Position numbers and translations under genes: made by a program. The notes under the pieces were generated by a model that searched no databases, was not told the origin of the DNA, and saw only the letters and a program-made list of their open reading frames with translations. From a virus (Duplodnaviria > Caudoviricetes), in IMG/VR virus record IMGVR_UViG_3300032007_000054, positions 26,167-90,166 of that record: a stretch of DNA of 64,000 nucleotides; one strand, 5' to 3'. The first letter of the stretch is position 1, and every line of letters starts with the position of its first letter. This document shows positions 17,022 to 60,059 of the stretch, piece after piece.

Positions 17022-17080
17022 TTTTGCATCTCCTATAGTGAGAGGACAAGGATGATCCTCTTGTGTTTTTAGAAAAGGAG
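17022..17080 (+). repeat. Cassette head repeat (promoter-like motif + leader hairpin + RBS), copy 1
   Basis: TTTTGCATCTCCTATAGTGAGAGGACAAGGATGATCCTCTTGTGTTTTTAGAAAAGGAG; near-identical copies at ~18724, ~19151, ~19581. Confidence 0.9.
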
Positions 17081-17086
17081 TGAAAA

Positions 17087-17266
17087 ATGGAATATTTTGA
17101 TGTATTGTATTATGTTGTTGATAGGAAAACAAACAATTTGCTATTTAACGGGCATGGAAACCCGTTTTACAGTGATGTACTGGAAGCTATGCTGATTATG
17201 CAGAAAGCTCATCCGGAAATGGATTTGGAAATTATTGAAGGGTCTTATACCCTTTTTGATAATTAA
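17087..17266 (+). CDS. Small cassette protein (59 aa)
   Basis: Read manually: AAGGAG-ATG 17087, MEYFDVLYYVVDRK...; stop abuts GCCC-GCAA-GGGC hairpin. Confidence 0.7.
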   Translation: MEYFDVLYYVVDRKTNNLLFNGHGNPFYSDVLEAMLIMQKAHPEMDLEIIEGSYTLFDN

Positions 17267-17290
17267 GCCCGCAAGGGCTTTTATTTTTTA
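17266..17290 (+). terminator. Repeated intrinsic terminator GCCC-(GCAA/GCAT/TACAT)-GGGC + U-tract
   Basis: Copies at 17266, 17839, 18693, 19130, 19561, 20004, 20319, 27411, 45634, 47152, 47381, 52435, each just after a stop codon. Confidence 0.85.
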
Positions 17291-17340
17291 CATCTCCTAT
17301 AGTGAAGACAATGTCTGTCTTCGAGATTTTAGGAGGAAAA

Positions 17341-17424
17341 ATGGAAAATGTTGTATATAAGTTGTCCACAGAAGAATTGTGGAAATTGTTGATTTGGTTT
17401 GCATCTGTAGAAAGGAGCAAATAA
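17341..17424 (+). CDS. Micro-protein (27 aa)
   Basis: AGGAGG RBS, MENVVYKLSTEELWKLLIWFASVERSK, TAATG-coupled to next gene. Confidence 0.5.
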   Translation: MENVVYKLSTEELWKLLIWFASVERSK

Positions 17425-17834
17425 TGAAAATATTAGAGTACTTTAAAAACAGAATAAAGTTGTATAAAGTACGAAAAGAAAGAGAAGTTCTTTCCTGCTA
17501 TATTGAGGCAGGATTAAAAAGAAAAGGTGTGTTGATCGCTTTGTGCGAAAAACGCTATATGGACTATGTATTAAAAGAGTCCAGAGTTAAATGTTTATTC
17601 AGTTCAATAGAAGATTTTCGAAACTATATGTTTAAGTTCGAATTTCCATATATTGAAAATAGTTGTTTTCTGTATGGAAAACAGCAAAAAGAATTGGATC
17701 GTAATAAAGAAAAATTATTACGAGAGGATTGTAATCCAGAGCATATTGTATTGCATTATAGTTCTGGAGATCCATCTATTTGTAAATACGATTATGTTTT
17801 ATATGCAGAATGCATTGACGTAATTGGAAAATAA
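17424..17834 (+). CDS. Hypothetical cassette protein
   Basis: ATG 17424 with AAGGAG; stop followed by repeat terminator. Confidence 0.7.
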   Translation: MKILEYFKNRIKLYKVRKEREVLSCYIEAGLKRKGVLIALCEKRYMDYVLKESRVKCLFSSIEDFRNYMFKFEFPYIENSCFLYGKQQKELDRNKEKLLREDCNPEHIVLHYSSGDPSICKYDYVLYAECIDVIGK

Positions 17835-17919
17835 TAAGGCCCGCAAGGGCTTTTATTTTTTACAACTCCTTTTAATTTTTGCCTTGAATTATGCACCTAT
17901 TCTAATAATGGAGGTGCAT

Positions 17920-18264
17920 ATGATTTCTATAGAATTCCAGCAAATTACTTATACAAATGGCTATAAAGTCAGACCAAGTCATCCTGTGGAGTGTCCAGAT
18001 TGTAAGGACGGCCTTGCCATGTGGCGATATGGATTTCGTCTGCGCAAAGTAAAAGATTTTCAGGGCAAATCCTATCAGATCAACCTGCAGCGGTATTACT
18101 GTCCGAAGTGCAGAAAGATATTTGTCATCCTACCGTCATTCCTGATCCCTTTCAAACAATATGATCGTGAGACTATTGCTAAAGTTCAAAATGGATTAAT
18201 TCAGGGATGCGGCGCAAGCTACCAGAGTATTTATCTCTGGATACGATTTTTACATATCCTCTAA
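17920..18264 (+). CDS. Zinc-ribbon protein (DUF6431/transposase-associated-like)
   Basis: CPDC..YG.R.R..I.LQRYYCPKCRKIFVILPSFLIPFKQY; GGAGGT RBS before ATG 17920. Confidence 0.55.
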   Translation: MISIEFQQITYTNGYKVRPSHPVECPDCKDGLAMWRYGFRLRKVKDFQGKSYQINLQRYYCPKCRKIFVILPSFLIPFKQYDRETIAKVQNGLIQGCGASYQSIYLWIRFLHIL

Positions 18265-18307
18265 TGAAGAGATAAAACTATATTCAAATCTCTTCAGGAG
18301 GAAAATT

Positions 18308-18688
18308 ATGTTTAAGAGTAAAAATGAAAAGATCGCTTTTGCGATCGTAATGATTATTGTTTGCGCTTTTAGCGTATGGTTTAACTGGCTTCGGCCGGTG
18401 AAACATGAGGTAAAAATTGCTCCTATGAAATGGGAGCAGCACTATTATGTTGGTGAAAATGGTTCTTATTGTGAAGGAACTGTTTGCCACATTGCTGTTC
18501 ATCAGGATGATGGACATGTATATCGATATATTGATCTGTTCAAAGATTGGACAGATAAAGAAGACGTTGATCGGTACTATTATTTAGCTCCGGTTGGTGT
18601 TGAATTTGAAGATATTGATAAAGCAGTAATTTGGTATTATGGAGAAATTACCGATGAAATAAATAGGTATATTGTATCTGATTACTAA
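18308..18688 (+). CDS. Membrane-anchored hypothetical cassette protein
   Basis: N-terminal hydrophobic helix; promoter motif at 18244, terminator at 18693. Confidence 0.7.
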   Translation: MFKSKNEKIAFAIVMIIVCAFSVWFNWLRPVKHEVKIAPMKWEQHYYVGENGSYCEGTVCHIAVHQDDGHVYRYIDLFKDWTDKEDVDRYYYLAPVGVEFEDIDKAVIWYYGEITDEINRYIVSDY

Positions 18689-18786
18689 TTCTGAGCCCGC
18701 ATGGGCTCTTATTTTTATCGCAAAATTTGCAACTCCTATAATGAGAGGACAAGGATGATCCTCTTATGTTTTAAAAAGGAGTAAAG

Positions 18787-18930
18787 ATGAAAAAGTTTTT
18801 AATTGGAATTATCAAGTACATAACGTACTATTTTGTTGGAACCGCATTTTGTTGCGGATTTTGGTACCTGCTTTTCGGCAGGGATGATAATGGAAAGAAC
18901 AAGTTGGAGAAAGGAGGCAGTAATGCCTAA
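18787..18930 (+). CDS. Small membrane protein (47 aa)
   Basis: AAGGAG-ATG after head repeat; MKKFLIGIIKYITYYFVGTAFCCGFWYLLF. Confidence 0.6.
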   Translation: MKKFLIGIIKYITYYFVGTAFCCGFWYLLFGRDDNGKNKLEKGGSNA

Positions 18931-19123
18931 CTTTGTGAATATGTATTTTGCGATCTGTTTGATCGCATGGGTTGTTGACGTGATTGCCATTGTGGTGATC
19001 ATTGCAGTAAAACCACTGAGGAAGTGGTGTTGGAACAAATACTGGGATCTTACCCGGTTGTTTTGTAAAAAAGCAAATGATTTGTCTTGGGAATTGATTA
19101 ACGATAAATTCTCAAACGAATAA
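18923..19123 (+). CDS. Small membrane protein
   Basis: AAGGAGG-ATG 18923; hydrophobic segment; followed by terminator. Confidence 0.65.
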   Translation: MPNFVNMYFAICLIAWVVDVIAIVVIIAVKPLRKWCWNKYWDLTRLFCKKANDLSWELINDKFSNE

Positions 19124-19215
19124 AATCCTGAGCCCTACATGGGCTCTTATTTTTTACATCTCCTAATATGGAGGACAAGAATGATCCTCTTAGTTGTTTA
19201 GAAAAGGAGATAAAA

Positions 19216-19554
19216 ATGTTGTTTAAAAAGAAGAAGCATAATGTTTCAGATTTAGAAGAATCGAAAATCTATGTTATTGTAATGGATGAGTACAATCATA
19301 ATAATAATTTGAAAAAATCATACAATTTGTATTATACAAAAGACTTGAAAACAGCTAGCGAACAGTTGTTAGAAAGTTGTGAAAAGCATAAAGTTATATG
19401 TGAAAAATTTGATAAACGAGTTGTAAAAAAAGAATTTTGGGGAGATACTTTATATGGCCCTTGGATTTGTTTAAAAATATATTATCCGGATATTCCGGAT
19501 GAATATTATAGCTCGTATCAATATCATATAAATGTATTAGATATTAAAAAATAA
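19216..19554 (+). CDS. AT-rich cassette protein
   Basis: AAGGAG-ATG 19216, MLFKK...; flanked by head repeat and terminator. Confidence 0.7.
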   Translation: MLFKKKKHNVSDLEESKIYVIVMDEYNHNNNLKKSYNLYYTKDLKTASEQLLESCEKHKVICEKFDKRVVKKEFWGDTLYGPWICLKIYYPDIPDEYYSSYQYHINVLDIKK

Positions 19555-19647
19555 ATTTTAAGCCCTACATGGGCTCTTATTTTTTGCATCTCCTATAATG
19601 AGAGGACAAGGATGATCCTCTTGTGTTTTTAAATAAAGGAGATAAAA

Positions 19648-20004
19648 ATGTTGTTTAAAAAAGAAAAAAATGAATATGAATCATTATGTAAAAGTATTGA
19701 AAAAGAAAGTGAATTTTTATATGTTGAAATTAGTAAGAATATTACAGAAAATGAAAATCGAATACTTGAATTAAAGGATAAAATAGATGAAATAAATGAA
19801 AAATTGGATAAATTATATGAAAAAATTGTATATAAAGAAAAATATTATAGTATTTATATAAAAAATAAAAAAACTGGTAAATATGAAGAAAGCAATTACG
19901 GAAAATTTAATAGCAATTTAGATGCTATTAATAAAATGATTGAGGAATCATATAGAACAAAACTTGATATGCAAGTAATTGAAAGAAAAATACCAAGAGA
20001 ATAA
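19648..20004 (+). CDS. AT-rich coiled-coil cassette protein
   Basis: MLFKK start identical to previous cassette; flanked by repeats. Confidence 0.7.
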   Translation: MLFKKEKNEYESLCKSIEKESEFLYVEISKNITENENRILELKDKIDEINEKLDKLYEKIVYKEKYYSIYIKNKKTGKYEESNYGKFNSNLDAINKMIEESYRTKLDMQVIERKIPRE

Positions 20005-20056
20005 GCCCGCAAGGGCTCTTATTTTTTACATCTCCTAATATGAAAGGAGATAAGTA

Positions 20057-20311
20057 ATGGAAAATAAATGTGAAATCAGAATTCTGTATGGAATTCGTGA
20101 AACGAGTAAAAGGAATTCCCCTTTATTGGGGGTAGTTTTCTCAAGTGAAGAGAAAGCAAATGAGTATATTGAACACATGTTGCCCAAAAAGTTATGTGTT
20201 GTTGAGGAAGGTTCTACTTATAATATTGAATATGAAGTAGTATTTATACGGTTGAATCCGTATTGTTCCGAAGGTTATGTTCAAGAAGTACGGTATGAAC
20301 ATGATTGGTGA
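20057..20311 (+). CDS. Hypothetical cassette protein
   Basis: AAGGAG RBS; flanked by motif and terminator. Confidence 0.7.
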   Translation: MENKCEIRILYGIRETSKRNSPLLGVVFSSEEKANEYIEHMLPKKLCVVEEGSTYNIEYEVVFIRLNPYCSEGYVQEVRYEHDW

Positions 20312-20536
20312 ATAAGATGCCCTACATGGGCTCTTATTTTTTACATATCCTTTTATTTTTTCAATCGCGAAATTTGCATACTCTATAACGGAAAGGAGTA
20401 TGTTTATATGAATTAAAGAAGAGTTAGAGGATGTAGCGCGCATCCTCTTTCTTTTTTAATTTTATCGGTACGACTTTTTATTTTCGAATTTGATAAATCT
20501 TCTTACGATAATGTGCAGAGAAAGGAGACTCAGAAA

Positions 20537-20782
20537 ATGGAAGAAGAACTTGCAATCGGTAGTGTACCGGTCTCAATCGCTGCCAAAGCGTATGGAAAGG
20601 ATGTATGCTGGGTCAGAGCAGGTCTGATCTGTGGCTGGCTGCCAATCGGCAACGCCACACGGAACGGAAAGCAGGTAACTGCGATCGAAGAAATGGACAG
20701 CAGATACGGGCGGATAAATTATTACATTTCGCCCAAGCTTTTATATGAGCAGACGGGTTATGCCTGGAAAGGAGAGCATTAA
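20537..20782 (+). CDS. Putative small DNA-binding (excisionase-like) protein
   Basis: VPVSIAAKAYGKDVCWVRAGL..GWLPIG..YYISPK, HTH-like; RBS AAAGGAG. Confidence 0.45.
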   Translation: MEEELAIGSVPVSIAAKAYGKDVCWVRAGLICGWLPIGNATRNGKQVTAIEEMDSRYGRINYYISPKLLYEQTGYAWKGEH

Positions 20783-20785
20783 CCT

Positions 20786-21211
20786 ATGACAACCCAGAAT
20801 CGTCCGGAAATATCGAAACAAAGTCCATATTGGATCAGCCGACACAGATTCTATGAACTGAAGCATTTTTGTCTCCAGTATTATGAGTGGAAGAACGAAC
20901 TGCAGTTCATCACGGAATGCCATCGACATCCGTTAGATGGCAAAGAATATTCATCCAATAACATCCGTCACACAGATCCCGTGTTTGAATGCGTAGTCCG
21001 GCGTGAAGAGCTGACAAAGAATATTGACATGATCGATAAGGCTGCAAAAGCTTGTTCGGACGATATCGGGAAGTATGTATTTAAAGGTGTGACAGAGGGA
21101 GTGTCTTTCGAGTATCTCTTTACTTCGGAAGATCGCATTCCCTGCTGCAAAGATTATTACTATGAGGCATTCCGGAGGTTTTTCTGGATCCTCTCAAAAT
21201 TGCGAAAATAA
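20786..21211 (+). CDS. Putative transcriptional regulator (ArpU/RinA-like)
   Basis: ISRHRFYELKHFCLQY..DP....RR..L..I..ID..C..YY...RRFF.L pattern. Confidence 0.4.
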   Translation: MTTQNRPEISKQSPYWISRHRFYELKHFCLQYYEWKNELQFITECHRHPLDGKEYSSNNIRHTDPVFECVVRREELTKNIDMIDKAAKACSDDIGKYVFKGVTEGVSFEYLFTSEDRIPCCKDYYYEAFRRFFWILSKLRK

Positions 21212-21393
21212 CATATCCTATAATGGCTCGGAGTTATGGAAGATAGAGAAATAAGGAGAGAAACAAAGAGCTGTTAAAGACGAATCAAGGGTCAGAATTC
21301 TGGCCCTTTTAATTTTCGCAAAATTTGCATGCACTATAACGGAACTAGTTTACTTTATTAGAAAGGAGTTAAAAGTGGACTGGCCGTTAGAAA

Positions 21394-21477
21394 AGCAGGA
21401 GATGATAGGCAGGAGTAACTTGCTGTTGGGAGATAGCTACCCAACAGGTAGAGTATGTCTGAGCCACATCTCCTGCT
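21394..21477 (+). ncRNA. Candidate structured RNA
   Basis: 11-bp outer stem AGCAGGAGATG/CATCTCCTGCT, 8-bp inner stem CTGTTGGG/CCCAACAG, promoter motif at 21316, U-tract after. Confidence 0.4.
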
Positions 21478-21506
21478 ATTTTTTATTTTTTGCATTTCCT
21501 ATAATG

Positions 21507-21591
21507 AAAGAAGTTAAAGCAGCGTGAGCTGTGAGTGGGCGACGGGTCTTGTCTGCCCGCCTGGAACGGTTCGATTCCGTTCAACTTCTTT
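21507..21591 (+). ncRNA. tRNA-like RNA (non-canonical)
   Basis: Acceptor-like AGAAGTT/AACTTCT stacked on GAACGG-TTCGATT-CCGTTC T-arm; two internal hairpins; own promoter motif at 21487. Confidence 0.5.
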
Positions 21592-21626
21592 TAAATTTTA
21601 TTTTGGTTCTTATTGGAGGTATTGAA

Positions 21627-21857
21627 ATGAAAGTGTATGTTGTGCTCATGGGTAATTTTAATGAAGTATCGGGACTTATTTCGGAAATTTTTGACAACAA
21701 AGAAAAAGCTGTATCTTATCTAGAATCACTTGATTGGAAACCGGATCCTCTTGGCTTTGAAGAAGATGATGACTGGGTAGAGGGTTATATATATAGTGAT
21801 GATCATAGAAAATTTTACTATGATTGGGCAGAGATTCGTGAATGGGAAGTTAAATAA
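21627..21857 (+). CDS. Small acidic hypothetical protein
   Basis: GGAGGT-ATG 21627, MKVYVV..I..IFDNKEKA pattern. Confidence 0.7.
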   Translation: MKVYVVLMGNFNEVSGLISEIFDNKEKAVSYLESLDWKPDPLGFEEDDDWVEGYIYSDDHRKFYYDWAEIREWEVK

Positions 21858-21920
21858 TTCAAAATGGTTCTAAAAGCCTCGTATATACGAGGTTTATTGT
21901 TTTTTTATCGGAGGTATTGT

Positions 21921-22118
21921 ATGAAAATGTATGAAGTTAAGATCAAAAATTTAGATGGATCTATAGAGTACAATCATTTTCAATCAAAAGAAGATGCTGT
22001 TAGATGGATGAAAAGCAGAGGATTTAAATATATAAGTACTAGCTGGACTGGATGGTTTGAAGAATGGGGAACAGATCATTTATATCCATTAGTTTCGTTA
22101 TGGTTTCCTAATGAATAA
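21921..22118 (+). CDS. Small hypothetical protein
   Basis: GGAGGT-ATG 21921; flanked by repeated AAGCCTCGTA hairpins. Confidence 0.7.
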   Translation: MKMYEVKIKNLDGSIEYNHFQSKEDAVRWMKSRGFKYISTSWTGWFEEWGTDHLYPLVSLWFPNE

Positions 22119-22189
22119 TTCAAAATTATTCTAAAAGCCTCATACTTACGAGGCTTATTGTTTTTTATTGGTACTAAATGGAGGTGAAT

Positions 22190-22741
22190 ATGGTATATCG
22201 CAAGTTTTATAAAAATGAAAGTATTTTTCGTGAACAGGCTGAATTGTGCATTGCTTTTTCTAAAGAACTTCAGAAGTTGTTGGCTGATGATTATGAAACA
22301 GTTGGTACAACATTTCATGGAAACCAAAGACCGCTTGTTGAAAATAAGAATACGAATAAATTTTGTCTTAATGACTATTATCTTGTTCCTTTAGGAACAA
22401 AAAAGGAGATCACTTACTACAGTAAGCCGAAGTGGTCTTTTCGTTTTTCAGATCATTGGAACTGGTATGAAAAGAGTAATCGGTGCGATGATACGGATTT
22501 TATTCAGTGCTTTAATGTCGATTTACCAAGAGTTGGTAAACGTTTCGTTTCTACAGATGTAAGGTCTGCGCCTTGTCAGGCTATTCAGGTAGCAATCTTC
22601 ACTCATGATCATGTTAAAAAGCATCATGATGGTGAAGCATATCACTGTGTCTACGGATCTTATAAAAATAAGGATACCCATAGTTGGGAGTGGATGGAAA
22701 AAACTCCGCAGCAGGTCATCGAAGAGTATTATCTTGCGTAA
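22190..22741 (+). CDS. Hypothetical protein
   Basis: GGAGGTG RBS; SFRFSDHWNW motif. Confidence 0.7.
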   Translation: MVYRKFYKNESIFREQAELCIAFSKELQKLLADDYETVGTTFHGNQRPLVENKNTNKFCLNDYYLVPLGTKKEITYYSKPKWSFRFSDHWNWYEKSNRCDDTDFIQCFNVDLPRVGKRFVSTDVRSAPCQAIQVAIFTHDHVKKHHDGEAYHCVYGSYKNKDTHSWEWMEKTPQQVIEEYYLA

Positions 22742-22747
22742 TTCAAA

Positions 22748-23071
22748 ATGGAGGCCGGAATGAGATTCCGAATCGTTAAAAACAGAACAGATCCCTTCTA
22801 TGGACGTCGAGCAAACTGGTACAATGTCAAGTTTACTGAAGATATCCAAAAGGATCTTGAAAAAAACTATATAAAGGAAATACATAATAGAACTGGAAAG
22901 CAGGATATGGACATTATTAATTGTTATGAAAATGCCGGTCTTGCTCATGAGCTATATGCCTGCCTTGAAGAAGACGATGATGAGCGAATGCGTCAAGCCC
23001 TCCAGCGGCTGGCAGATGAAAAACTGAACCAGGTCGTTTCGATTCTGGTTGATCTTGGTTACACGTTTTGA
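22748..23071 (+). CDS. Hypothetical protein
   Basis: ORF in operon; true start may be 22760. Confidence 0.6.
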   Translation: MEAGMRFRIVKNRTDPFYGRRANWYNVKFTEDIQKDLEKNYIKEIHNRTGKQDMDIINCYENAGLAHELYACLEEDDDERMRQALQRLADEKLNQVVSILVDLGYTF

Positions 23072-23077
23072 TTCAAA

Positions 23078-24115
23078 ATGGAGAAAAAGATGAATAAAGT
23101 TGAAATGCATAAGAAGATTTGTGAAGAATTAAACGACTTGTACGAACGCAAAAACGCCGATTACGGCGAAAGCTTTGCCGAACTCCGAAAGGAGTATCCG
23201 GAATCGATCTGTATCCGCCTTACAGATAAACTAAACCGACTGAAAAAACTCACTTCTGCTGATCATGAACAGAATGTCAAGGATGAATCAGTTGAAGATA
23301 CGCTGAAGGATATTGCAAATTATGCGATCATGGAATTAGTGGAACGGAAAGGTACTGAAGATGAATCAATACTAAATGATAATATTATGTTGTTCTATGA
23401 TGAAGTAACTCAACATTATTTTCAGGCAAATCAAAAACAGATTAATGCTGCGTTAACAAGTCTGTCCAAGATGATGGAAACTAATGGATATGTAACAATA
23501 TCTGATTATTTGAGGCATATTGGTTTAGGCGAATTTGACGATGATGATACATATAATCAATTAGGTTGGAATGAGAAATGGCCGGCATGCTTCGGATTTT
23601 CTACATCAGAAGGGTGTTTATGTGGAGAACCTGTAGTAAAAATAAAAGTAACGTACCCTTATACATTGGTTAATAAGTGGCAAAAATCCGTTGAACATTA
23701 TGGCATTACAGGTCAAAAATGGGGTAAACGACAAAAAGAATATAAGTCAATTCTTATAGCTTTTTATAATTATGATATGAACAAACATATTCAAAATCTT
23801 CAGCTTGTGTATAACAATACCATAGAAGAACAATACGAATACCATAGTTATGACATTTCCGGACAATCTTGGAAAGATCAGGTATTTGAAATGGCGAAGT
23901 ATATCTACACATTTCTGGATGGCGTGTATTCAGACGACCATGGCGGATCAATGTTTGTTCCGGATATGCTTGGAAGGAATGCTCTTTGGATAGCTTTGGA
24001 CGTTATAGATCATGAGAATCATGAAATCGAGTATAACATGGCAGATCCTGAAGAATACGATCGGATCACTGAGTTTTATAAGATTTATAAGAAAGGAAGC
24101 AGGAATGAAAGATAG
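23078..24115 (+). CDS. Mosaic protein: DUF1599-like + GW-type domain + HYGITGQKWG motif
   Basis: YERKNADYGESF..RLTDKLNRL (DUF1599-like); central region similar to C-termini of 27837/29009/30971. Confidence 0.6.
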   Translation: MEKKMNKVEMHKKICEELNDLYERKNADYGESFAELRKEYPESICIRLTDKLNRLKKLTSADHEQNVKDESVEDTLKDIANYAIMELVERKGTEDESILNDNIMLFYDEVTQHYFQANQKQINAALTSLSKMMETNGYVTISDYLRHIGLGEFDDDDTYNQLGWNEKWPACFGFSTSEGCLCGEPVVKIKVTYPYTLVNKWQKSVEHYGITGQKWGKRQKEYKSILIAFYNYDMNKHIQNLQLVYNNTIEEQYEYHSYDISGQSWKDQVFEMAKYIYTFLDGVYSDDHGGSMFVPDMLGRNALWIALDVIDHENHEIEYNMADPEEYDRITEFYKIYKKGSRNER

Positions 24116-24766: not shown

Positions 24767-24829
24767 TCATACGCAGATGACGATAAAGAATGATAAATTT
24801 GTATCGTAAAAAATTCCCGGAGGGAGAAA

Positions 24830-25305: not shown

Positions 25306-25380
25306 TCGCTAAATTTTCATTTCCTAAAATGGAGAGGCAAGGATGGCCTCTTTTTGTTTTTAAATTAGAAAGGAGTGAAA

Positions 25381-27217: not shown

Positions 27218-27292
27218 AAATCGCAAAATTTTCACCTCCTATAATGGAAGGACATAGAGGTCCTTTTGTGTTTTTTATTAAAAAGGAGGAAA

Positions 27293-29794: not shown

Positions 29795-29889
29795 ACTCGC
29801 GAAAAAAACATGGCCTTTAAAGAGAGACAAACAGTCTCTCTTTAATTTTGTTAGTTATTGTTATGTGTAAAAAAGAAAGGAAACAAATT

Positions 29890-45135: not shown

Positions 45136-45180
45136 AACATAATCACTATAATTTCATGTCCTCTAATGGAGGAAAATAAA

Positions 45181-45282: not shown

Positions 45283-45378
45283 GGGTTCTTACCCTCTTTA
45301 TTTTCTCCCAAGATTTGCATGTTCTATAACGGAGGAGACAAGGATGATCTTCTCTTAGTTGTTAGTAGAAAGGAAAAA

Positions 45379-46702: not shown

Positions 46703-46777
46703 ATATTTCTATTCTAGGTTAGATCTGCGAGGACCTTAAAGAAAGCAATCGCAATTAAAACATAGCCTTTAATAGAA

Positions 46778-46890
46778 AGGATAGTAAAGTCTCGTAAGGA
46801 CGCTCGGTGGGTTTGCACCCTGATCGAGAGGACTCGTATTAGTGCAAAGGATACGATGACGAAAGAAGGAATTACGAATTTACTTATCCT
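46778..46890 (+). ncRNA. Candidate structured RNA with loop-loop complementarity
   Basis: Promoter motif at 46749; long closing stem; two hairpins carrying complementary TTTGCAC and GTGCAAA; no ORF. Confidence 0.55.
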
Positions 46891-46972
46891 GAAGCTTTTT
46901 CATTTCGTGTAATTTACATGGCCTCTAATGAAAGAGTACGTTGTAAGCGGCTCTAAATTATTAGGAGGAAAA

Positions 46973-47143: not shown

Positions 47144-47207
47144 TGCAAAATGAGCCCGCATGGGCTCTTTATTTTTACATCTCCTTTTACGAGAAAGGAG
47201 GACCATT

Positions 47208-51893: not shown

Positions 51894-52214
51894 ATGGGAT
51901 TTTTTGAGATAATTGGTTTCGCAGCATGCATAGTAGGTGCAGTTCTTCTTGTCGCATGGATCATTACTTTCTTTGATGAATGGAATGATATTCAGTACAA
52001 AGTTAATACAGGGATCCCGAAAGACATTGCATTCCTGGATCATAAGATCAATGAATTGTCAAGTCAGGAAGATGAAGAGAATGATTGTGAAGAAGACAAT
52101 CTTGTCGCTTCTCTGAGTGAGCGTCTGGCCAATGCAGAGAGCCATATCCTGATGCTTGAGTATCAGAATGAGACGATCATGTCTGAACTTGATAATTTAA
52201 AGAAATCCGAATAA
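51894..52214 (+). CDS. Membrane-anchored coiled-coil protein
   Basis: N-terminal TM. Confidence 0.65.
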   Translation: MGFFEIIGFAACIVGAVLLVAWIITFFDEWNDIQYKVNTGIPKDIAFLDHKINELSSQEDEENDCEEDNLVASLSERLANAESHILMLEYQNETIMSELDNLKKSE

Positions 52215-52278
52215 CGATTTTTACATAGCCTCTAATGAAGAGAGAAAACTATATTAAGCTCTCTTCAATGGAGGAAAA

Positions 52279-52704: not shown

Positions 52705-52731
52705 TTGATATTTAGGAACGAAAGGAAACAA

Positions 52732-53226: not shown

Positions 53227-53642
53227 GCATGTTCTATACGATTTACGCTTACGGTGATTTTGACAAGAAGAATCAGGCCTGGGATGACGGGATCACAAAA
53301 TACAGTGAGCCGGTCCATCAAACACGAAAGGATATGGAAGCGATCATATCCCGGAAACCGCATAAGATGATCAATCTTGATAAGGCGACATGCCCAGATG
53401 TTCAGGAGTATTTGTCTCAGGAAAAAGACGGCAAACGCCATGTGCGCCTTGCCGTAAAGGCAATGGGGTATGCTCATGCTCTGGAACGTGCGAAAGCTTA
53501 TTGCAATAAAACCTACAAACCGAAACGAAACCGTAAAAAGCAGGTATCCGCAAAGGATCTGATGAGCTTTATGGGTTATGTTTCCGGTGTTTCCGCCAAA
53601 GCATCCGGCGGAAGATCGTATATGTCTGATTATGTATTTTAA
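53223..53642 (+). CDS. Hypothetical protein
   Basis: ATGA overlap. Confidence 0.65.
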   Translation: MSMFYTIYAYGDFDKKNQAWDDGITKYSEPVHQTRKDMEAIISRKPHKMINLDKATCPDVQEYLSQEKDGKRHVRLAVKAMGYAHALERAKAYCNKTYKPKRNRKKQVSAKDLMSFMGYVSGVSAKASGGRSYMSDYVF

Positions 53643-53653
53643 GGAGAAAACTT

Positions 53654-54121
53654 ATGCCTTGTGAATCACATTCTTATGATGCAGCATTATATTTTTATGA
53701 CGGCGTGAATTGGAAACTGCTCAGCCACGTTCGCTGTGATGAGGACTGTCCTAGTATCTGGAAAGATGAGGAGACGAAAGTGGAAGAAGAACAGAAAGTA
53801 CCGGATGAAAGGTTTGAAAGAGATCTCAGCAATCTGAAAAAGAAGCTGAAGAACAAGTTCTATGAACAGGGTTATTTAACTGTAGGGGATATGGTTGAGC
53901 TTCTTCATCTGAATGTCAATGGACCGGACTTCAATCCTTATATTCTTTATACAGGAGATACAAAACTTTATCGAAATGCGATGGAGAATCTTGCGATCAA
54001 GAAATATCGTGCGCATAGAAGCAACATCAATAATAATAAATATACTTCTGCAGAATACCGCGAATTCCAGCGCATCAACATGGCTCTTGACGATCTCGAG
54101 AACACCAAGCAGCAGAACTAA
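53654..54121 (+). CDS. Hypothetical protein
   Basis: AAGGAG RBS; QGYLTVGDM resembles the GW-family segment. Confidence 0.65.
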   Translation: MPCESHSYDAALYFYDGVNWKLLSHVRCDEDCPSIWKDEETKVEEEQKVPDERFERDLSNLKKKLKNKFYEQGYLTVGDMVELLHLNVNGPDFNPYILYTGDTKLYRNAMENLAIKKYRAHRSNINNNKYTSAEYREFQRINMALDDLENTKQQN

Positions 54122-54199
54122 GTTCTGACTCCGGATAAACGCAAAGAGGGTTTGTAAATTTTACAAGCCCTCATTATTTTTAAATGAAAGGAACCACAA

Positions 54200-54688
54200 A
54201 TGTGTTACACACTGCAGGAATGTCTGGAACGGACCGGCAGCCTTCGGCGAGGCAAATATGTTTACCGGGTGCTCTGTGAGAATGGCATCAGGACCTGGGA
54301 TGATTTTGTTGCAAAACCTATCCCTTCCAAGGGCCTATATAATAATGAAGTCCTTGCCCTGAACAGGATCCGCATGAAGGAGCTTGATATTCGTGAGGCG
54401 AAGGCTTCCGCTTACAACGATTTGGTAAGCTTGCTGTCGAAATATGTTCGTAAGAATGATGCCCGTCGTATCGCTTCGAGCCTTAAGCGGGAAGATATCT
54501 GGTCCATGCGGCTGCTTGCCTCAACTCCGGATGAAAAACTGGAGAAGATCTATGGGATCGGGCCGAAGAGCCTTGATATTTTAAAGAAGGTCAAGACCTT
54601 TCTTAATTCCCCAAAAGCGATGACAAGCGGTAAATCAAAAGCCGTATCGGCTGCTCCCTCTCCGTTCCAACCACTATTAGCCTATTAG
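54200..54688 (+). CDS. Protein with alphaCTD-like (HhH) domains
   Basis: RVLCENGIRTWDDF and RIASSLKREDI....L...DEKLEKIYGIGPKSLDILKK. Confidence 0.6.
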   Translation: MCYTLQECLERTGSLRRGKYVYRVLCENGIRTWDDFVAKPIPSKGLYNNEVLALNRIRMKELDIREAKASAYNDLVSLLSKYVRKNDARRIASSLKREDIWSMRLLASTPDEKLEKIYGIGPKSLDILKKVKTFLNSPKAMTSGKSKAVSAAPSPFQPLLAY

Positions 54689-54701
54689 GAGATTGATATT
54701 T

Positions 54702-55052
54702 ATGAAACAAGTTTCTGCTATCAGTAAACCTGTTATGCTGCGTATCGATTACGAAGCTGACTTTCACAGGGATTTTCTTTGCGACAACCGTGATCATCTG
54801 ATGAACATACTGGAACTGATGCTCGGGCATTATATGGGTGAAGCCGTATACAAAATTCTTGATAAGCGAGAGGAATGTAAATTTCCATCAGGTTACCGTG
54901 ACATGTTCTTAGAGAAGAATCATTATATTTTTCGGATTCATGCCGAATTTGATTACAAATTCCCCGATAGCAAAATGCCAAAGCATAAGAAACCGGAGAA
55001 AGAAAATGCCGACGAAGTACAACAAGAACGAACTGAAACTGAAGATCTATGA
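54702..55052 (+). CDS. Hypothetical protein
   Basis: ORF in operon. Confidence 0.55.
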   Translation: MKQVSAISKPVMLRIDYEADFHRDFLCDNRDHLMNILELMLGHYMGEAVYKILDKREECKFPSGYRDMFLEKNHYIFRIHAEFDYKFPDSKMPKHKKPEKENADEVQQERTETEDL

Positions 55053-55152
55053 GTATCTGGATGAAGGCTTCTTCCCGGAAGACATTGCGGAGATCCTTGA
55101 TATTTCGCTGCCGGAAGTTATCCAATTAATCAAAGAGGTCGAGGGTGGATAG
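55006..55152 (+). CDS. Small HTH protein
   Basis: GFFPEDIAEILDISLPEV. Confidence 0.55.
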   Translation: MPTKYNKNELKLKIYEYLDEGFFPEDIAEILDISLPEVIQLIKEVEGG

Positions 55153-55465
55153 ATACTGGAGCTTAAGCGGAAAACTATTTTCCGGCGATCAACCGATCCT
55201 TAGGATCAATGAATGCTATGAGATCGATTATTTATCAGATGAGACAAAAGATTATATGCAGGATAGAGATTATGCCTGCCGTATCTATTCTGATATTTAC
55301 GATGATCTTCTCAATATGCAATACCATGCGATCATTAAAGCAAAAGATCAGAATAACATGCTGCTTGTATTAGCACAGAACACCAGGCAGGTGCAGATCC
55401 TTCTGGATTTTCAGCTGCCTTACAACCAAAAAAGTCCGAAAGAGGATCCGAATGAAAACGATTGA
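55145..55465 (+). CDS. Hypothetical protein
   Basis: ORF in operon. Confidence 0.55.
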   Translation: MDRYWSLSGKLFSGDQPILRINECYEIDYLSDETKDYMQDRDYACRIYSDIYDDLLNMQYHAIIKAKDQNNMLLVLAQNTRQVQILLDFQLPYNQKSPKEDPNEND

Positions 55466-56027
55466 AATGGCATGGAAACATTTTAAAACCATATGCCGCC
55501 ATAAGTATTACGTTTACCAGGAGTGCCGGGCTTGCGGTATTACCTGGCAGGGGATCATCCATGATCTGTCTAAATTCAGTGCGACTGAGTTTATTCCTTC
55601 TGCAAAGTATTTTCAAGGTGATAGAAGTCCGATCGAAGCAGAAAAAGAAGCCTGCGGTTATTCTTTTGCATGGCTGCATCATAAAGGCTGCAACCCGCAT
55701 CATTGGGAATTCTGGACAGACTTTGCAGAAGCTGATGGAGGCGTGATCACAAATAAGATCCCATATCAATATGTTGTTGAAATGGTATGCGATTGGATCG
55801 GCGCAGGAAAAGCTTACCAGAAAGAAGCATGGACGCAGGATTCACCGATGAACCATTACATAAAAATGCGGAAAGGCCGGTATTTTCATCCGGAGACTGA
55901 CAAACTGATTGTTCAGTTTCTTATCTGCATTAAAAGCAAAGGCCTGGATGAGTTTCATAAAATGGCAAAGTGTGAAAGTCCTTATTCTTATACCAGGATT
56001 GACTATGAAGGGGTATATGTTCCGTGA
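55452..56027 (+). CDS. DUF5662-like HD-type phosphohydrolase
   Basis: RHKYYV, HDLSKFS..EF, HHK..NPHHWE.W, EMVCDW. Confidence 0.7.
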   Translation: MKTIEMAWKHFKTICRHKYYVYQECRACGITWQGIIHDLSKFSATEFIPSAKYFQGDRSPIEAEKEACGYSFAWLHHKGCNPHHWEFWTDFAEADGGVITNKIPYQYVVEMVCDWIGAGKAYQKEAWTQDSPMNHYIKMRKGRYFHPETDKLIVQFLICIKSKGLDEFHKMAKCESPYSYTRIDYEGVYVP

Positions 56028-56419
56028 AGACATTTGACGATTTATGGAAATGTATGTTCGTTGCGATCGGTGTTCTTGGTATTCTCGTATTTTTCTTCGG
56101 TCCACCGAAAGCAGCAATGAATCCGGACCCGACACCGACTGTGATATTTGATGGCGTTACCGCGGATCAGATCGCTCGTGTTGAGGAAATGTGCCGAAGA
56201 TATATTGAACTATGGGAATCTGATCTGGAACTCTATAATGAGACTGCCGACAGTGATAGGCCCAAGATTCAGGAGATCCATGAGCGTGTAAAGACTCGTA
56301 TGAACGAGATCAGTGATATGTATAACAACTACCTTATTACCAATGGCTATGTTTTTAACGGAACACTGCCTGATGGTATTTATGCATGTATTGAACGAAT
56401 CGGAGATACTGATGAATGA
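56024..56419 (+). CDS. Membrane-anchored hypothetical protein
   Basis: N-terminal TM. Confidence 0.6.
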   Translation: MKTFDDLWKCMFVAIGVLGILVFFFGPPKAAMNPDPTPTVIFDGVTADQIARVEEMCRRYIELWESDLELYNETADSDRPKIQEIHERVKTRMNEISDMYNNYLITNGYVFNGTLPDGIYACIERIGDTDE

Positions 56420-56825
56420 TCTTGTTGAAAGAAGAGCGGTATTAGCTCTTGCAAAAGATATTTCCGTTGTGACTATAGATGGATCTGAATACTCTCACCG
56501 ATGTATTGATCCTGGCGATGTAATAGAGATGCCGTCAGCCAGTAATCCGGATTACGAATTTCATGAATGGTGCCATGACTGCAAGGAATACGACCAAAAA
56601 CAACACTGCTGCCATCGCTGGACACAAGTTATCCGAAAGACTTATGAGGAGATAAAGGCAAGAAAAAAGCCTGCAAAAGTGATCCAGCAGCGGGTCGACT
56701 ATAGTAATTATGACGAATTTATGACGCAGCATCTGATCGGCGAATGTGATTACTGCGGTACAGATGTTATTGAAGGCGACAATTATTGTTCTTATTGCGG
56801 ATGCAAACTGGAGTGGAAAGAATGA
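56412..56825 (+). CDS. Zinc-ribbon phage protein
   Basis: CHDCKEY, CDYCG..NYCSYCGCKL. Confidence 0.7.
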   Translation: MNDLVERRAVLALAKDISVVTIDGSEYSHRCIDPGDVIEMPSASNPDYEFHEWCHDCKEYDQKQHCCHRWTQVIRKTYEEIKARKKPAKVIQQRVDYSNYDEFMTQHLIGECDYCGTDVIEGDNYCSYCGCKLEWKE

Positions 56826-57169
56826 TATTTCAAACACAAACTCAACGTAAAAACATTTTTGACGAATTCACAAAGAAACTTCGTGAACGTGCAGCAATGG
56901 ATCCTAAGACTCGTAAGGATGGGAATCTGAATTATCTGTTTTTGGTTTATGACAGAGATAAAAACGAGATATCCCATTATTCTGCATACACTACAAATAA
57001 TAACTATCCTGAATTAATCGAGATGTTGATCTGGGAACATCTAATTGATATTTCCGAGGATGAACTTACCGAAGACGAGGTCCGTGCTCATTACAACTGG
57101 ATCCTGAAACGGATAAGTGATATTTGTGTTAAAAGAATTGAAAAAGCTCGTAAGGACATAGAGGCGTAA
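56822..57169 (+). CDS. Hypothetical protein
   Basis: ATGA overlap. Confidence 0.6.
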   Translation: MIFQTQTQRKNIFDEFTKKLRERAAMDPKTRKDGNLNYLFLVYDRDKNEISHYSAYTTNNNYPELIEMLIWEHLIDISEDELTEDEVRAHYNWILKRISDICVKRIEKARKDIEA

Positions 57170-57540
57170 TGTACTATCTGTTGAAAATCCCGCTTAATAT
57201 GAATGACGAAAAGACTGTCATCACCCCGTCTGAAGAGATGGCTTTTGATATTTGGCATGCGGACGAGGCTTATGAACATTTCGCCAAGTCATGCTACCCG
57301 ACAACAAACTGGGAGATCATCGGACCAAAACCTAATAAGCAAAATTACGTAATTGCTTATTCTGTCTCGATCCCTGATATTTACAACGAGCTGCATAACA
57401 TCACCCTCCTCATCCATGCGACCGATGATGATAGCTGTGATGATGCCGCAGCAGATTGGATCCTGGATTACCAGAATGATATTCTCAAAGCCGAATGGCT
57501 CAAAAGCAACGAACTTCCGGATACACACAAGGAGAATTAA
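57169..57540 (+). CDS. Hypothetical protein
   Basis: TAATG coupling. Confidence 0.6.
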   Translation: MYYLLKIPLNMNDEKTVITPSEEMAFDIWHADEAYEHFAKSCYPTTNWEIIGPKPNKQNYVIAYSVSIPDIYNELHNITLLIHATDDDSCDDAAADWILDYQNDILKAEWLKSNELPDTHKEN

Positions 57541-57939
57541 ATGAATTTATATTTAGCTGAATACTTCAGTGATCTGTCCAATCCAAAGGACACGATGCAG
57601 ATGACAAACTTTATTGAGATCGGTATTTTTGACGCACAGCGCTATATTGAAGACTGGATCTTTATCTACGGCCATGTGGAAGATCCTACAGGCTTGATAT
57701 TCAGAAAGCAGTATGATGAACTCCCGAATCAACTGGCTCCGTGTATGGTTGCTTATACGGACGACACTCATGAAAACTTCTGCCGGCAATTTCTCATTAT
57801 CTGTGCGACTGAGATGCCGGAAGCGGAAGACATTGCAGATATTGAATCCTGGAATCATATTTTAGATTCCGTTACTTTAGTCGAACCTGAAGATGAGCCT
57901 GAGATCGAGGAGACAGATGGAGCTGACGACGCAGATTAA
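57541..57939 (+). CDS. Acidic hypothetical protein
   Basis: AAGGAG RBS. Confidence 0.6.
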   Translation: MNLYLAEYFSDLSNPKDTMQMTNFIEIGIFDAQRYIEDWIFIYGHVEDPTGLIFRKQYDELPNQLAPCMVAYTDDTHENFCRQFLIICATEMPEAEDIADIESWNHILDSVTLVEPEDEPEIEETDGADDAD

Positions 57940-58210
57940 TTGGCTTCCTATTTTAAACAGCTGGAAACCTTTGACCTGGTCTGAACTGACCAGTCCCGAA
58001 ATGGTAGATCATTATATTTGGGTGATCTACCCATATCCTCAAAAGAGTGAAGACCCGTTTACCGAAGAAGTTCTGAAGATCGTCGGAATGGATCGGGTAG
58101 ATGATAAATGGGCTGTTGTTGTAAAGAATTACAGTGATGAGGATTTCCTTATTCTGGAAGAGGGCAAAGGAGCTCTCTGGGAAGCTTATGAGATCAAACA
58201 AGGTATTTAA
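57917..58210 (+). CDS. Hypothetical protein
   Basis: PLTWSEL..IW..W.AY module similar to C-terminus of 26475. Confidence 0.6.
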   Translation: MELTTQINWLPILNSWKPLTWSELTSPEMVDHYIWVIYPYPQKSEDPFTEEVLKIVGMDRVDDKWAVVVKNYSDEDFLILEEGKGALWEAYEIKQGI

Positions 58211-58219
58211 GGAGATTTT

Positions 58220-58567
58220 TTGATGAATGCATTCAGAACCGTGCAGGATGCCATTGACGGGCATTTCTGCTGTGACATTGCAGCAATCGGAAGACAGAGC
58301 CTGATGGACTGCGAACATTGTCCGTATAATGATGAAGAAGATAAGCTTGGTAACTGTGTTGCCCGGCTTAACAATGATATTCAGTATTTCCTGAAACAGG
58401 AATTGAAACATCAGCAAGCTGAACAGCAAAAAGTACAGCCAATGCTTCCAGGTATTTTTGATGATGCGGTTGATACAATCGCTGAAAAACTAAAGGAAAT
58501 GGCCGAAGAAACTGAGCCTGAAGAAGAGAAAAAAGATTTTCATAAAAAGAAATGGAATCATAAATGA
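58220..58567 (+). CDS. Cys-rich hypothetical protein
   Basis: CC..CEHCPY..C..L..D. Confidence 0.65.
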   Translation: MMNAFRTVQDAIDGHFCCDIAAIGRQSLMDCEHCPYNDEEDKLGNCVARLNNDIQYFLKQELKHQQAEQQKVQPMLPGIFDDAVDTIAEKLKEMAEETEPEEEKKDFHKKKWNHK

Positions 58568-58782
58568 TTACGGAAAATACTATTCGTGAAACTCGCGACC
58601 GGTTGGATGATATCTGCAAAGATTGGGATAAAACTTCAGATGATTATAGAGCGGTCAAATCAGCTGCTATTTATCTGAATGAATTTATGCAGTTTTTGAT
58701 CTACATCAAAGGTACGGACGCAGCTCGTTCGTACGGGAATTTTATTATTGATAATGAAACTTATGATTCGGATGAATGGTAA
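58564..58782 (+). CDS. Hypothetical protein
   Basis: ATGA overlap. Confidence 0.6.
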   Translation: MITENTIRETRDRLDDICKDWDKTSDDYRAVKSAAIYLNEFMQFLIYIKGTDAARSYGNFIIDNETYDSDEW

Positions 58783-59079
58783 ATGAAAAGTATCCATGAC
58801 ATATTATGGGGAAGCTCCTGCTGCATGCAGTATGATGAGCCGCTTTGTTACAGCTGTGCTTACAAAGGGATCAAGGATTGCAGCGAAGTTCTCCATGATG
58901 ATATTTATGCTATGTTGGAGCAGGGACGAATCCGCATCAGCAGTGATGGTTTATATGAACCGGCGGACATGGAAACAATGAAAAAAGTAAAAACCAAGAG
59001 GAAGAATGGACGACGATATTCTGACGGTGAACGCAGAAAAGGACGGCATGAACAATACGGGATTTTTGATGAAAACTGA
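58783..59079 (+). CDS. Cys-rich hypothetical protein
   Basis: CC..CYSCAY..C..L.DD, paralog-like to 58220. Confidence 0.6.
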   Translation: MKSIHDILWGSSCCMQYDEPLCYSCAYKGIKDCSEVLHDDIYAMLEQGRIRISSDGLYEPADMETMKKVKTKRKNGRRYSDGERRKGRHEQYGIFDEN

Positions 59080-59084
59080 TCTGA

Positions 59085-59500
59085 AAAATGGTCAAAAATC
59101 CGTGGCCAATTTTGTGGCCAAAAATCTTGAATTGGCCGCCTTTTTTGCAAAAGTTTGGATCCGGAAGATGACCAAAAAGTGAAAAATTTGCATTTTGGCC
59201 AAAAAAAGTGGCCAATTGGCCAATTTTTTTTGACAGGGTGGCCACGAAAAAATGGCAAATTTACTCGTAAAAATCGGCAAAAAATGGCTTTGTGGCCAAA
59301 AACCCACCCTTTTCCCTTATTAATTTTAAAAAAGATAAATAAATTTTAAAAAGAATTAGAAAGTAGGTGGGTTTTTGGCCACGGACTTAAAAATCGGGGA
59401 TTTTTTCTGCTGATTTGAAGGTCCGGAAATCAGGGCTGATTAACGTCTGATTAAGGTTGCCGAAAGGTCTGATTAAGGTCGTACGGACGATTTTTAAAAA
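59085..59500. repeat. Repeat-rich non-coding region, candidate replication origin
   Basis: Clustered TGGCCA, 17-bp perfect IR 59292-59308/59366-59382 around an AT-rich core, three CTGATTAA(C/G)GT direct repeats. Confidence 0.6.
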
Positions 59501-59567
59501 CCTCCAAAAGAGTGACGGATGTTATAATCAATGACAGAAACGCTTTAATGGAGGTTTTAATTTTTAG

Positions 59568-59864
59568 ATGTCAATCGATTATGATCTCGGTGCCCTGATG
59601 GGTGACCGATATGAAGAAGTGTATGATCAGGATGGCAATGGTGTTCTTACTGATTGCTGCGGAGTATATATGGTTTGGGATTCACAGACCGGAAAGTATA
59701 TTTGCCCAAGATGCAAGGACCAGATCAGCAGACAGGAATTTCTTGATGAGTATGTAGAAGCTTATGGTCCGGAATGCTACGGATGCAAAACGAATTATCC
59801 GCAGTGCATTATTTGTCATCGCGGTCATCAAAAAGATTTGGATGAAAGAGAAGACAGAATTTGA
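59568..59864 (+). CDS. Cys-rich zinc-binding protein
   Basis: DCCG, ICPRC, CYGC..QC..C. Confidence 0.7.
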   Translation: MSIDYDLGALMGDRYEEVYDQDGNGVLTDCCGVYMVWDSQTGKYICPRCKDQISRQEFLDEYVEAYGPECYGCKTNYPQCIICHRGHQKDLDEREDRI

Positions 59865-60059
59865 GCGATTTTTAGTAATTGCGAAATTTACATGTCCTAT
59901 TATAGAGAGAAGGAGAATATATCATCGACTTCTCTTTTTTTTTGTAATGTGTGTTATTGGTATAAGCCGATTAGCATAGTTGTTCATTACACTCCTTTCT
60001 ACAAGGCCATGGATCATGTTAGGTTCATGGCCTCTTATTTTTTACAAAAAAGGATACAT

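Follow-up and report, generated by a model that had tools for sequence, protein, structure and literature searches.

A repeated promoter-like motif that accompanies a predicted helix-turn-helix-fused two-barrel RNA polymerase in phages of Actinobacteria and Firmicutes

Genome layout and the repeated motif

The stretch analysed here, hereafter the window, is the right-hand 64 kb (64,000 nucleotides) of one 90,166-bp viral record (IMG/VR record IMGVR_UViG_3300032007_000054, Caudoviricetes). It holds 21 copies of a promoter-like motif, together with the gene of a 916-amino-acid (916-aa) protein that is proposed to read them. Genome positions 1-41.6 kb form a structural/late arm on the + strand, with an HNH gene, large terminase, portal, a protease-capsid fusion, a 3932-aa tape-measure protein and tail genes. 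A tyrosine integrase follows on the - strand (window 15742-16980). Window 17-64 kb makes up an early/middle arm on the + strand, which contains many small genes and also codes for a 1323-aa primase-polymerase, NrdD and nucleases. The 916-aa protein, a predicted two-barrel RNA polymerase with fused helix-turn-helix (HTH) domains (phrog_4291), is encoded at the end of this arm, at window 60879..63629 on the + strand.

The original prediction placed the motif at 21 sites, always on the + strand, and called it genome-wide. A copy is present at each of these coordinates and all 21 are on the + strand, but the distribution is narrower than claimed: the motif is absent from genome 1-43,192, which covers the structural/late arm and the integrase, and is confined to the early/middle arm, with every copy between the integrase and the polymerase gene. 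With each site anchored on the C of its CAT (window coordinates), leave-one-out scores from a 20-nt core matrix were 17.8-27.5 bits at 19 sites and about 10 bits at anchors 29809 and 46761, both of which have an upstream TCGC box. A matrix scan of the full 90,166-bp genome on both strands gave no additional strong site, the next best scoring 13. The 14-mer CATNNCCTATAATG has 28 matches with at most two mismatches, against 7.1 +/- 2.5 in 100 dinucleotide shuffles (maximum 13), and all 13 matches with zero or one mismatch are listed + strand sites. Twenty of the 21 sites are intergenic, compared with a 15% intergenic share of the arm (binomial p ~1e-15), and the single other site falls only within an over-long open reading frame call. 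At seven or more sites, a GC hairpin lies upstream and its T-run merges into the motif. A megablast search of the promoter-rich region against GenBank phages returned no match.

Numbered so that +1 is the purine directly after the TATAAT-like box, the motif spans about 30 bp: TCGCGAAA at -25 to -18, ACA at -14 to -12, C-7, T-6, T-4, A-2, T-1, G+1 and three purines. In this phage, the upstream box is TCGC(G/A)AAA at -25 to -18, with an exact CGC in seven sites and TGCG in two. The core consists of T-rich bases followed by (A/G)CAT at -14 to -11, CC at -8/-7 and the box at -6 to -1, while +1 is G except in two sites with A, and purines come next. The TTTACA-like and TATAAT-like blocks had been described as about 5 nt apart, with a box that often deviates, and both descriptions hold: the measured gap is 4-5 nt, A occupies hexamer position 2 in 14/21 sites, and A2 is combined with T6 in 11/21. 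The mean core score is 17.2 bits in sites with a CGC box, compared with 23.5 bits in sites without one. Because the CGC-box sites have the weaker cores, the upstream box and the core appear to be two recognition modules, one compensating for the other. The motif is asymmetric and does not form an inverted repeat.

Along the + strand, the copies are given here as span, with anchor and +1 base in brackets. The first, 17015..17044 (17027, G 17040), lacks a CGC box and has a 5' hairpin from +1, and the second, 17279..17308 (17291, G 17304), is fused to the T-run of an upstream terminator. Next come 18241..18270 (18253, G 18266), with the box TCTAAT and a hairpin from +1, and 18718..18747 (18730, G 18743), with a TCGCAAAA box. 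The copy at 19145..19174 (19157, G 19170) is terminator-fused, and that at 19575..19604 (19587, G 19600) has the best core, at 27.5 bits leave-one-out. At 20017..20046 (20029, G 20042), a Shine-Dalgarno sequence runs from +3 and an ATG stands at +16. Upstream boxes then recur at 20365..20394 (20377, G 20390; TCGCGAAA), 21200..21229 (21212, G 21225; TTGCGAAA) and 21316..21345 (21328, G 21341; TCGCAAAA). The copy at 21481..21510 (21493, G 21506) leads into a tRNA-like RNA from +2; this 88-nt element (21507..21594, + strand) has a canonical T-arm and a 9-bp closing stem starting 1-2 nt past G 21506, and was left uncalled by ARAGORN and Rfam, which called nothing in the window. Further along lie 25306..25335 (25318, G 25331), with a TCGCTAAA box and a hairpin from +2; 27221..27250 (27233, G 27246), with a TCGCAAAA box; and 29797..29826 (29809, G 29822), which pairs a weak core (TTTAAA) with a strong TCGCGAAA box.

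The more distant copies begin with 45143..45172 (45155, G 45168), whose G lies within a Shine-Dalgarno sequence, and 45306..45335 (45318, G 45331). The copy at 46749..46778 (46761, A 46774) has a weak core and a TCGCAATT box and is followed by a structured non-coding RNA. It is succeeded by 46905..46934 (46917, G 46930) and by 47166..47195 (47178, G 47191), which is terminator-fused with a Shine-Dalgarno sequence at +5. A hairpin starts at +1 of 52212..52241 (52224, G 52237), and the last copy, 59879..59908 (59891, A 59904), heads the endonuclease-exonuclease-polymerase operon.

Two decayed copies outside this list, at window 17863 and 20344 (TTTTACAACTCCTTTTAATT and TTTTACATATCCTTTTATTT), lie just past terminators, and neither has a G at +1. 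At many sites, including the polymerase operon, the leader would form a hairpin followed by a T-run, like a terminator, at +1 to +35 (window 17041-17075, 18744-18775, 19171-19200, 19601-19632, 25332-25360, 27247-27280, 29822-29850 and 59905-59945). Such leaders could stabilise 5' ends, or could halt the host polymerase but let the phage enzyme pass.

Conservation of the motif and its polymerase gene

A tblastn search with the 916-aa protein found 250 relatives among GenBank phages, from the hosts Arthrobacter, Gordonia, Streptomyces, Rhodococcus, Curtobacterium, Microbacterium, Bifidobacterium, Lactococcus and Faecalibacterium, and in nearly all matched records the polymerase gene lies at the right genome end. 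Koert et al. defined a supercluster with this polymerase as its signature gene, and their text makes no mention of a promoter (bioRxiv 10.1101/842583). Using simple k-mer counting or matrix refinement, the same motif architecture was recovered de novo in every fetched member, comprising seven GenBank phages from six host genera plus IMG/VR relatives. It reads tCGCGTAAATTACAnGGGCTATAATG in Arthrobacter phage Circum, tCGCAnAnATTACACGYCCTATAATG (AGACCCCTA; 8 copies, right arm, coding strand) in Gordonia phage Vardy, TCGCAAGtTTTACAnGCnTTATAGTGAGACCCCTA in Streptomyces phage Scap1 (61% GC), tCGCGAnnAnAACATCGCTTATAATG in Bifidobacterium phage BitterVaud1, TTAAGTTTTACATACCCTATAATGA in Lactococcus phage P078, GACGCGAAAAATnCAGnnTnCTTTATGGA in Faecalibacterium phage FP_oengus and aCGCGAAAtTTACAtGnnCTATTATGAGA in the IMG/VR contigs L004, L005 and L026. 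In each phage the copies lie in the right arm on the coding strand, and they are densest directly past the tail or lysis genes. The copy upstream of the endonuclease-exonuclease-polymerase operon is kept in nearly all relatives, often as the subclass CATGCCCTTTTATR.

A matrix pooled from ten phages with equal weight shows which positions hold across this range. C-24, G-23, C-22, A-14, C-13 (1.00), A-12, C-7, T-6, T-4 (0.98), A-2, T-1 (0.98), G+1 (0.90) and purines at +2 to +4 are all invariant or nearly so. In Vardy and Scap1 the motif is followed by a common leader, AGACCCCTACGAAAGGA, so that conservation between these phages of two actinobacterial genera extends into the initial transcribed region and the ribosome-binding site. 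P078 is the sole phage without the CGCG box, and in its polymerase the conserved Arg of the second HTH recognition helix is replaced. This single event hints that box and Arg are lost together.

The association was also followed from the motif to the gene. A stringent motif pattern occurs in at least 120 IMG/VR stretches, and the polymerase is encoded in 30/34 motif-selected contigs of at least 45 kb, including 27/27 of those at least 90% complete.

The polymerase itself matches phrog_4291 over its full length (E = 0). Its three HTH segments lie at residues ~62-85, 104-130 and 885-912, two N-terminal and one C-terminal and sigma-region-4-like. HTH_23 and Sigma70_r4_2 are above threshold in Pfam, with only a weak RdRP match. 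The protein has an invariant GADFDGD loop, and across the family neither the catalytic DxDGD loop nor the barrel motifs vary. An AlphaFold model (predicted local distance difference test 76, predicted template modelling score 0.64) was used for a fold search, which retrieved QDE-1 (E 1e-7), plant RDR2, the P23-45-family proteins gp64/gp62 (E 2e-5) and gp96, all of them two-barrel enzymes; a sequence search against Protein Data Bank chains found no match. Computational work had already predicted a polymerase with HTH ends for this family (PMC2919709; Koert et al. 2021), and the enzyme is the only DNA-binding protein conserved across the lineage (bioRxiv 10.1101/842583). A polymerase profile search of the genome matched the 916-aa gene alone. 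No sigma region 2 and no Mor protein (PF08765) was found in the genome, while MotA/AsiA had no specific search.

Copies also occur in bacterial chromosomes. The stringent pattern has 79 matches in 596 Gb of species genomes, where about 9 are expected by chance; most are in metagenome-assembled genomes of gut Clostridia, and many lie within polymerase-carrying prophages. The polymerase gene is absent from 14/24 bacterial genomes with one exact motif copy. In those 14 genomes the copy heads a small chromosomal cassette, typically ordered as terminator, motif, palindrome, Mor-family activator and variable cargo. The best-studied cassette (L156 6942-8000, equal to L235 143-2478, G035:C1:126942-129277) has the palindrome TTTACAAGGAATTGTTCC and a 97-aa Mor-family activator, and at this locus the flanks are housekeeping genes; further loci, likewise from polymerase-free gut Clostridia, are found in L172, L184, L192, L214 and L181. 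A PADLOC PDC-S30 match (1e-95) is found among the cargo, as are an EcsC/PDC-S29-like protein, SHOCT proteins, DUF6591 and a membrane protein with a zinc ribbon, and the promoter and first 34 nt of the leader are identical in four species. The motif of these cassettes is either read by the host polymerase or silent until a phage polymerase arrives, and the cassettes may be infection-triggered traps or satellites.

Start site and candidate readers of the motif

Transcription would start at the G abutting the box. At 14/109 strong sites from 8 phages, a Shine-Dalgarno sequence lies 0-5 nt past this G with a start codon at +13 to +18, and these sites include annotated genes such as FP_oengus gp04 and P078_0023. 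At 12/21 sites in the present phage, a stable hairpin has the G or the next base as its first paired base. tRNA genes start at +2 in FP_oengus (2935) and at +3 in L026 (5800), and the tRNA-like RNA starts at +2 of site 21506. These three independent features, which begin directly after the box, place the likely RNA start at the G beside it; were transcription to begin some 6 nt later, as expected for sigma70, all of them would be truncated.

The motif is long and contiguous and occurs in many same-strand copies ahead of genes, and it is in all likelihood a promoter of some kind. A function as a recombination or cassette-boundary site, comparable to an integron-like array beside the integrase, or as an RNA-processing site appears highly improbable. 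In its favor, the densest array adjoins the tyrosine recombinase and consists of repeat-bounded units with near-identical heads of 50-60 bp, and small-gene shuffling by mobile promoter/stem-loop cassettes (PeSLs) is known from T4-type phages. Cassette shuffling through repeats does not, however, conflict with promoter function, and the motif is present in strictly lytic relatives that have no integrase (Circum, Vardy, Scap1 and P078). Copies at 45-60 kb stand far from the integrase, ahead of replication and polymerase genes, and the asymmetry of the motif also argues against such a site. Moreover, the motif follows terminators, so RNA must start anew there.

As to the reader, the HTH-fused two-barrel polymerase of the phage probably uses the motif as its private promoter and recognises it through the built-in HTH domains. 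The original prediction had named this enzyme as the natural candidate, and the link is supported as far as sequence allows: the motif is conserved across polymerase-sharing phages of Actinobacteria and Firmicutes, the gene is found in 27/27 near-complete contigs, no sigma or Mor gene was found, and the protein combines a two-barrel fold with three HTHs. A signal that travels with the polymerase across phages of such different bacteria is most likely the polymerase's own.

In the proposed mechanism, the HTH modules would bind duplex upstream elements, namely TCGCGAAA at -25 to -18 and ACA at -14 to -12, and the AT-rich box at -6 to -1 (TATAAT, TATTAT or CTTTAT, depending on the phage) would melt. 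RNA would begin at the conserved G after the box and run on into purines. The 21 promoters would then drive the whole early/middle arm in units of a terminator, a promoter, a 5' hairpin or ribosome-binding site and one or two genes, and would serve the polymerase operon and some small RNAs too. Transcription of the late arm would proceed some other way, and the first polymerase molecules would probably enter along with the DNA.

Several observations weigh against the phage polymerase as reader. Motif and gene both mark one lineage, so their co-occurrence is not phylogenetically independent. The motif is present in polymerase-free cells, and something there may therefore read it. The polymerase operon stands under its own motif copy (59904), with no convincing host-type promoter found upstream. 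YonO of SPbeta, the only characterised relative, serves a single late operon, with a single start site (Forrest et al. 2017, PMC5467207), whereas this phage has 21 copies and none before the late arm. In its place directly ahead of the late arm, the polymerase gene resembles yonO. Many members have a perfect TATAAT as their box, which the host sigma-A holoenzyme could use, especially in Actinobacteria, and the units close with hairpin and T-run terminators, a signal known for the bacterial polymerase.

These observations bear on the main rival explanation, in which the copies would be "-10 only" early promoters of host sigma-A, the upstream block would be UP-like or an activator site, and the phage polymerase would serve the late arm only, from a promoter near cos, as YonO does. 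Many copies have a perfect or near-perfect TATAAT, the gene position recalls yonO, classical intrinsic terminators end the units, and some bacteria that lack the phage polymerase have one copy of the motif. In addition, the earliest genes require a polymerase that is already there at infection. A published note on Vardy describes a 50-bp intergenic motif with five copies in one phage and reads its TATAAT as a sigma70 -10 (Henson et al. 2022, PMC9671010). This 50-bp motif corresponds to the present element plus its leader. The polymerase gene is "hypothetical" in that note and is not linked to the motif, and neither cross-phylum conservation nor a start-site argument is given.

Nevertheless, the prediction that the geometry is unlike that of sigma70 is supported by the sequence. 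TTTACA-like and TATAAT-like hexamers are common to both promoter types, but the spacing is 4-5 bp here compared with 16-18 bp for sigma70/sigma-A, and the likely start is 6 nt too close. No -35 hexamer lies at 16-18 bp, no TTGACA-like conservation is seen 17 bp upstream, and the box has no TG extension. The position matching sigma's -11 A has A in only 14/21 sites and at 0.56 in the ten-phage pool, compared with 0.98 at hexamer positions 3 and 6. In contrast to the sigma-A pattern, with its emphasis on positions 2 and 6, the best-conserved bases are C-13 and those at positions 3, 5 and 6 of the hexamer. The FP_oengus consensus replaces TATAAT with CTTTAT, and several relatives have CTTTAT or TTTTAT. 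A start 6-8 nt past the box would remove ribosome-binding sites (at least 14 genes), 12 hairpin 5' arms and the first bases of two tRNAs. A fixed-spacing 30-bp block is shared by Streptomyces and gut Clostridia phages, with no conserved activator besides the polymerase, and the motif is very rare in bacterial chromosomes. A host sigma-A reader is accordingly regarded as unlikely, though not negligible. A generic sigma70 hexamer-pair scan showed no enrichment (46 found, 50 expected; 10 against 18.5), and a search of the present phage and of P078 for a sigma70-type promoter ahead of the polymerase operon gave neither enrichment nor a convincing candidate. Readings as a sigma-K/E-like CATA-N3-TA, sigma-54 or extracytoplasmic function promoter were dropped, since the conserved positions do not fit.

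Another explanation separates recognition from synthesis: the HTH-rich protein would read the motif but recruit or redirect the host core polymerase, as a sigma substitute or an activator of the MotA/Mor type, with its catalytic centre serving, for example, priming. The three HTH modules, one of them sigma region-4-like, would suit this role, as would the motif-gene co-occurrence and the layout of a box near -25 plus an AT-rich box, which resembles a T4 middle promoter. Yet the family keeps the DxDGD loop and barrel motifs unchanged, the fold resembles that of active polymerases, no sigma region 2 is seen in the protein, and the likely start geometry is unlike a bacterial open complex. Such a recruiter is considered improbable. 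In comparison with promoters that depend on T4 MotA or on Mu Mor/C-type activators, no phage Mor gene was found here, and MotA/AsiA were not searched for specifically.

Delivery of the polymerase and relation to known systems

Because the polymerase operon lies behind motif copy 59904, the first polymerase molecules must come from elsewhere: from the virion, from a host promoter so far unseen, or through host polymerase firing some of the copies. An invariant N-terminal motif of the polymerase, LMHYGxxRxSGRYPWGSG (LMHYGTKRHSGRYPWGSG; window 60950-61030), is disordered in the model and resembles the DUF7211 tag (ELKHWGIxGMKWGVRRY). This tag begins two head-module proteins in the present phage (genome 1985-2659 and 4416-5183), and one to three in FP_oengus, Scap1, BitterVaud1, L019, L013 and L010. 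The tag-like sequence may be a capsid-targeting signal, and the likeness is compatible with virion delivery of the polymerase without proving it. Virion-delivered polymerases are found in N4 and in crAss-like phages. A broader scenario describes a sigma-independent, self-contained system, in which a tag-packaged and injected 100-kDa polymerase with three built-in HTH readers would fire about 20 private 30-bp promoters, still recognisable between Streptomyces and gut Clostridia phages, and the Mor-led bacterial cassettes, with their candidate defence genes (PDC-S30/S29-like, SHOCT proteins), would act as infection-triggered traps that respond to the incoming phage polymerase alone; it is speculative and seems doubtful in this complete form.

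The motif shares several features with the promoters of T7, T3 and SP6, including a contiguous conserved stretch of 23-30 bp, many same-strand copies, an AT-rich box abutting the +1 G (here the proposed start), an initial transcript rich in purines and, upstream, a duplex segment read by the specificity element. Unlike those Pol-I-like enzymes, the polymerase here belongs to the two-barrel, cellular-type class (QDE-1/YonO-like), and the promoter sequences are unrelated. TCTCCTATAGTGAG, at window 17027-17044 and 17291-17308, equals the reverse complement of the T7 core with one base missing (14/15), but it lies on the wrong strand and is probably a coincidence.

YonO, like the present enzyme, is a single-chain two-barrel polymerase whose gene lies just upstream of a late operon with an exonuclease gene nearby, although it is far diverged and gives no tblastn match to the 916-aa protein. 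Its promoter sequence is undefined (PMC5467207). Between the published primer-extension primers, the SPbeta sequence contains TCATTTATGAGGG, which shares C-7, T-4, W-3, A-2, T-1, G+1 and RRR with the motif. This likeness is short, the start is bracketed by primers only, and the region has no CA at -13/-12 and no CGC box. In SPbeta (NC_001884), TCATTTATGA(A/G)GG occurs twice in the yonN-yonK spacer, at ~10615 and 10445 on the minus strand, with the second copy between the primer-extension primers.

A precedent for a private motif comes from Thermus phage P23-45, whose polymerases gp96 (in the virion, fused to the tape measure) and gp64 each have their own motif at mapped starts. That assignment used ONT-cappable-seq and chromatin immunoprecipitation sequencing (ChIP-seq), and both enzymes are two-barrel, single-chain and early-acting (bioRxiv 10.1101/2022.12.01.518664). 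The gp64 family is a structural neighbour of the 916-aa protein. Unlike the present case, in which the motif is assigned from sequence, the P23-45 motifs are AT-rich and GC-rich and the enzymes have no fused HTH. The tape-measure gene of the present phage (genome 13796-25594, upstream of the window) encodes 3932 aa, more than twice the length in relatives. Pfam identifies only a TMP_3 segment and a CW_7 repeat in this protein, and the excess of 2000+ residues is of interest given the tape-measure-fused polymerase of P23-45; a second polymerase was considered there, and the polymerase profile matched the 916-aa gene only.

How single-chain two-barrel polymerases find promoters was stated as an open question in a 2010 survey (PMC2919709) and in the 2017 YonO paper (PMC5467207). 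For this family, promoter recognition was explicitly left open and no promoter was described (PMC2919709; Koert et al. 2021). A literature search, with a coverage that omits most subscription journals, found no paper linking the motif to the polymerase. The present analysis corrects the published sigma70 reading of the motif and offers a concrete, testable promoter with the invariant positions CGC at -24 to -22, C-13, T-4, T-1 and G+1. The polymerase family is bench-untested and occurs in hundreds of phages, some of which, from Lactococcus, Arthrobacter, Gordonia and Streptomyces, can be cultured. If the proposed assignment is correct, the enzyme would be a cellular-type polymerase reduced to a minimum, with fused HTH domains taking the place of sigma in promoter recognition. 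The assignment would also explain how these phages maintain a base composition far from that of their hosts, and could provide a compact orthogonal expression system for Gram-positive bacteria.

The record termini are cohesive (cos) ends, where window 63980-64000 joins genome 1-90. Two strong terminators lie just past cos, at genome 11-31 and 46-78, followed by a conserved long stem-loop before the first late gene; from cos to this gene, neither a motif copy nor any conserved promoter was found. The cos sequence, ACCCCCTCCCCCAATC | TCCAAAAATTCCCCGGGGGA, is conserved and matches relatives, and the 74%-related contig L019 shares it. Relatives have nine additional bases at the junction (GCGGGGGTC in L019), which fits a 9-base overhang as reported for Arthrobacter phage Circum.

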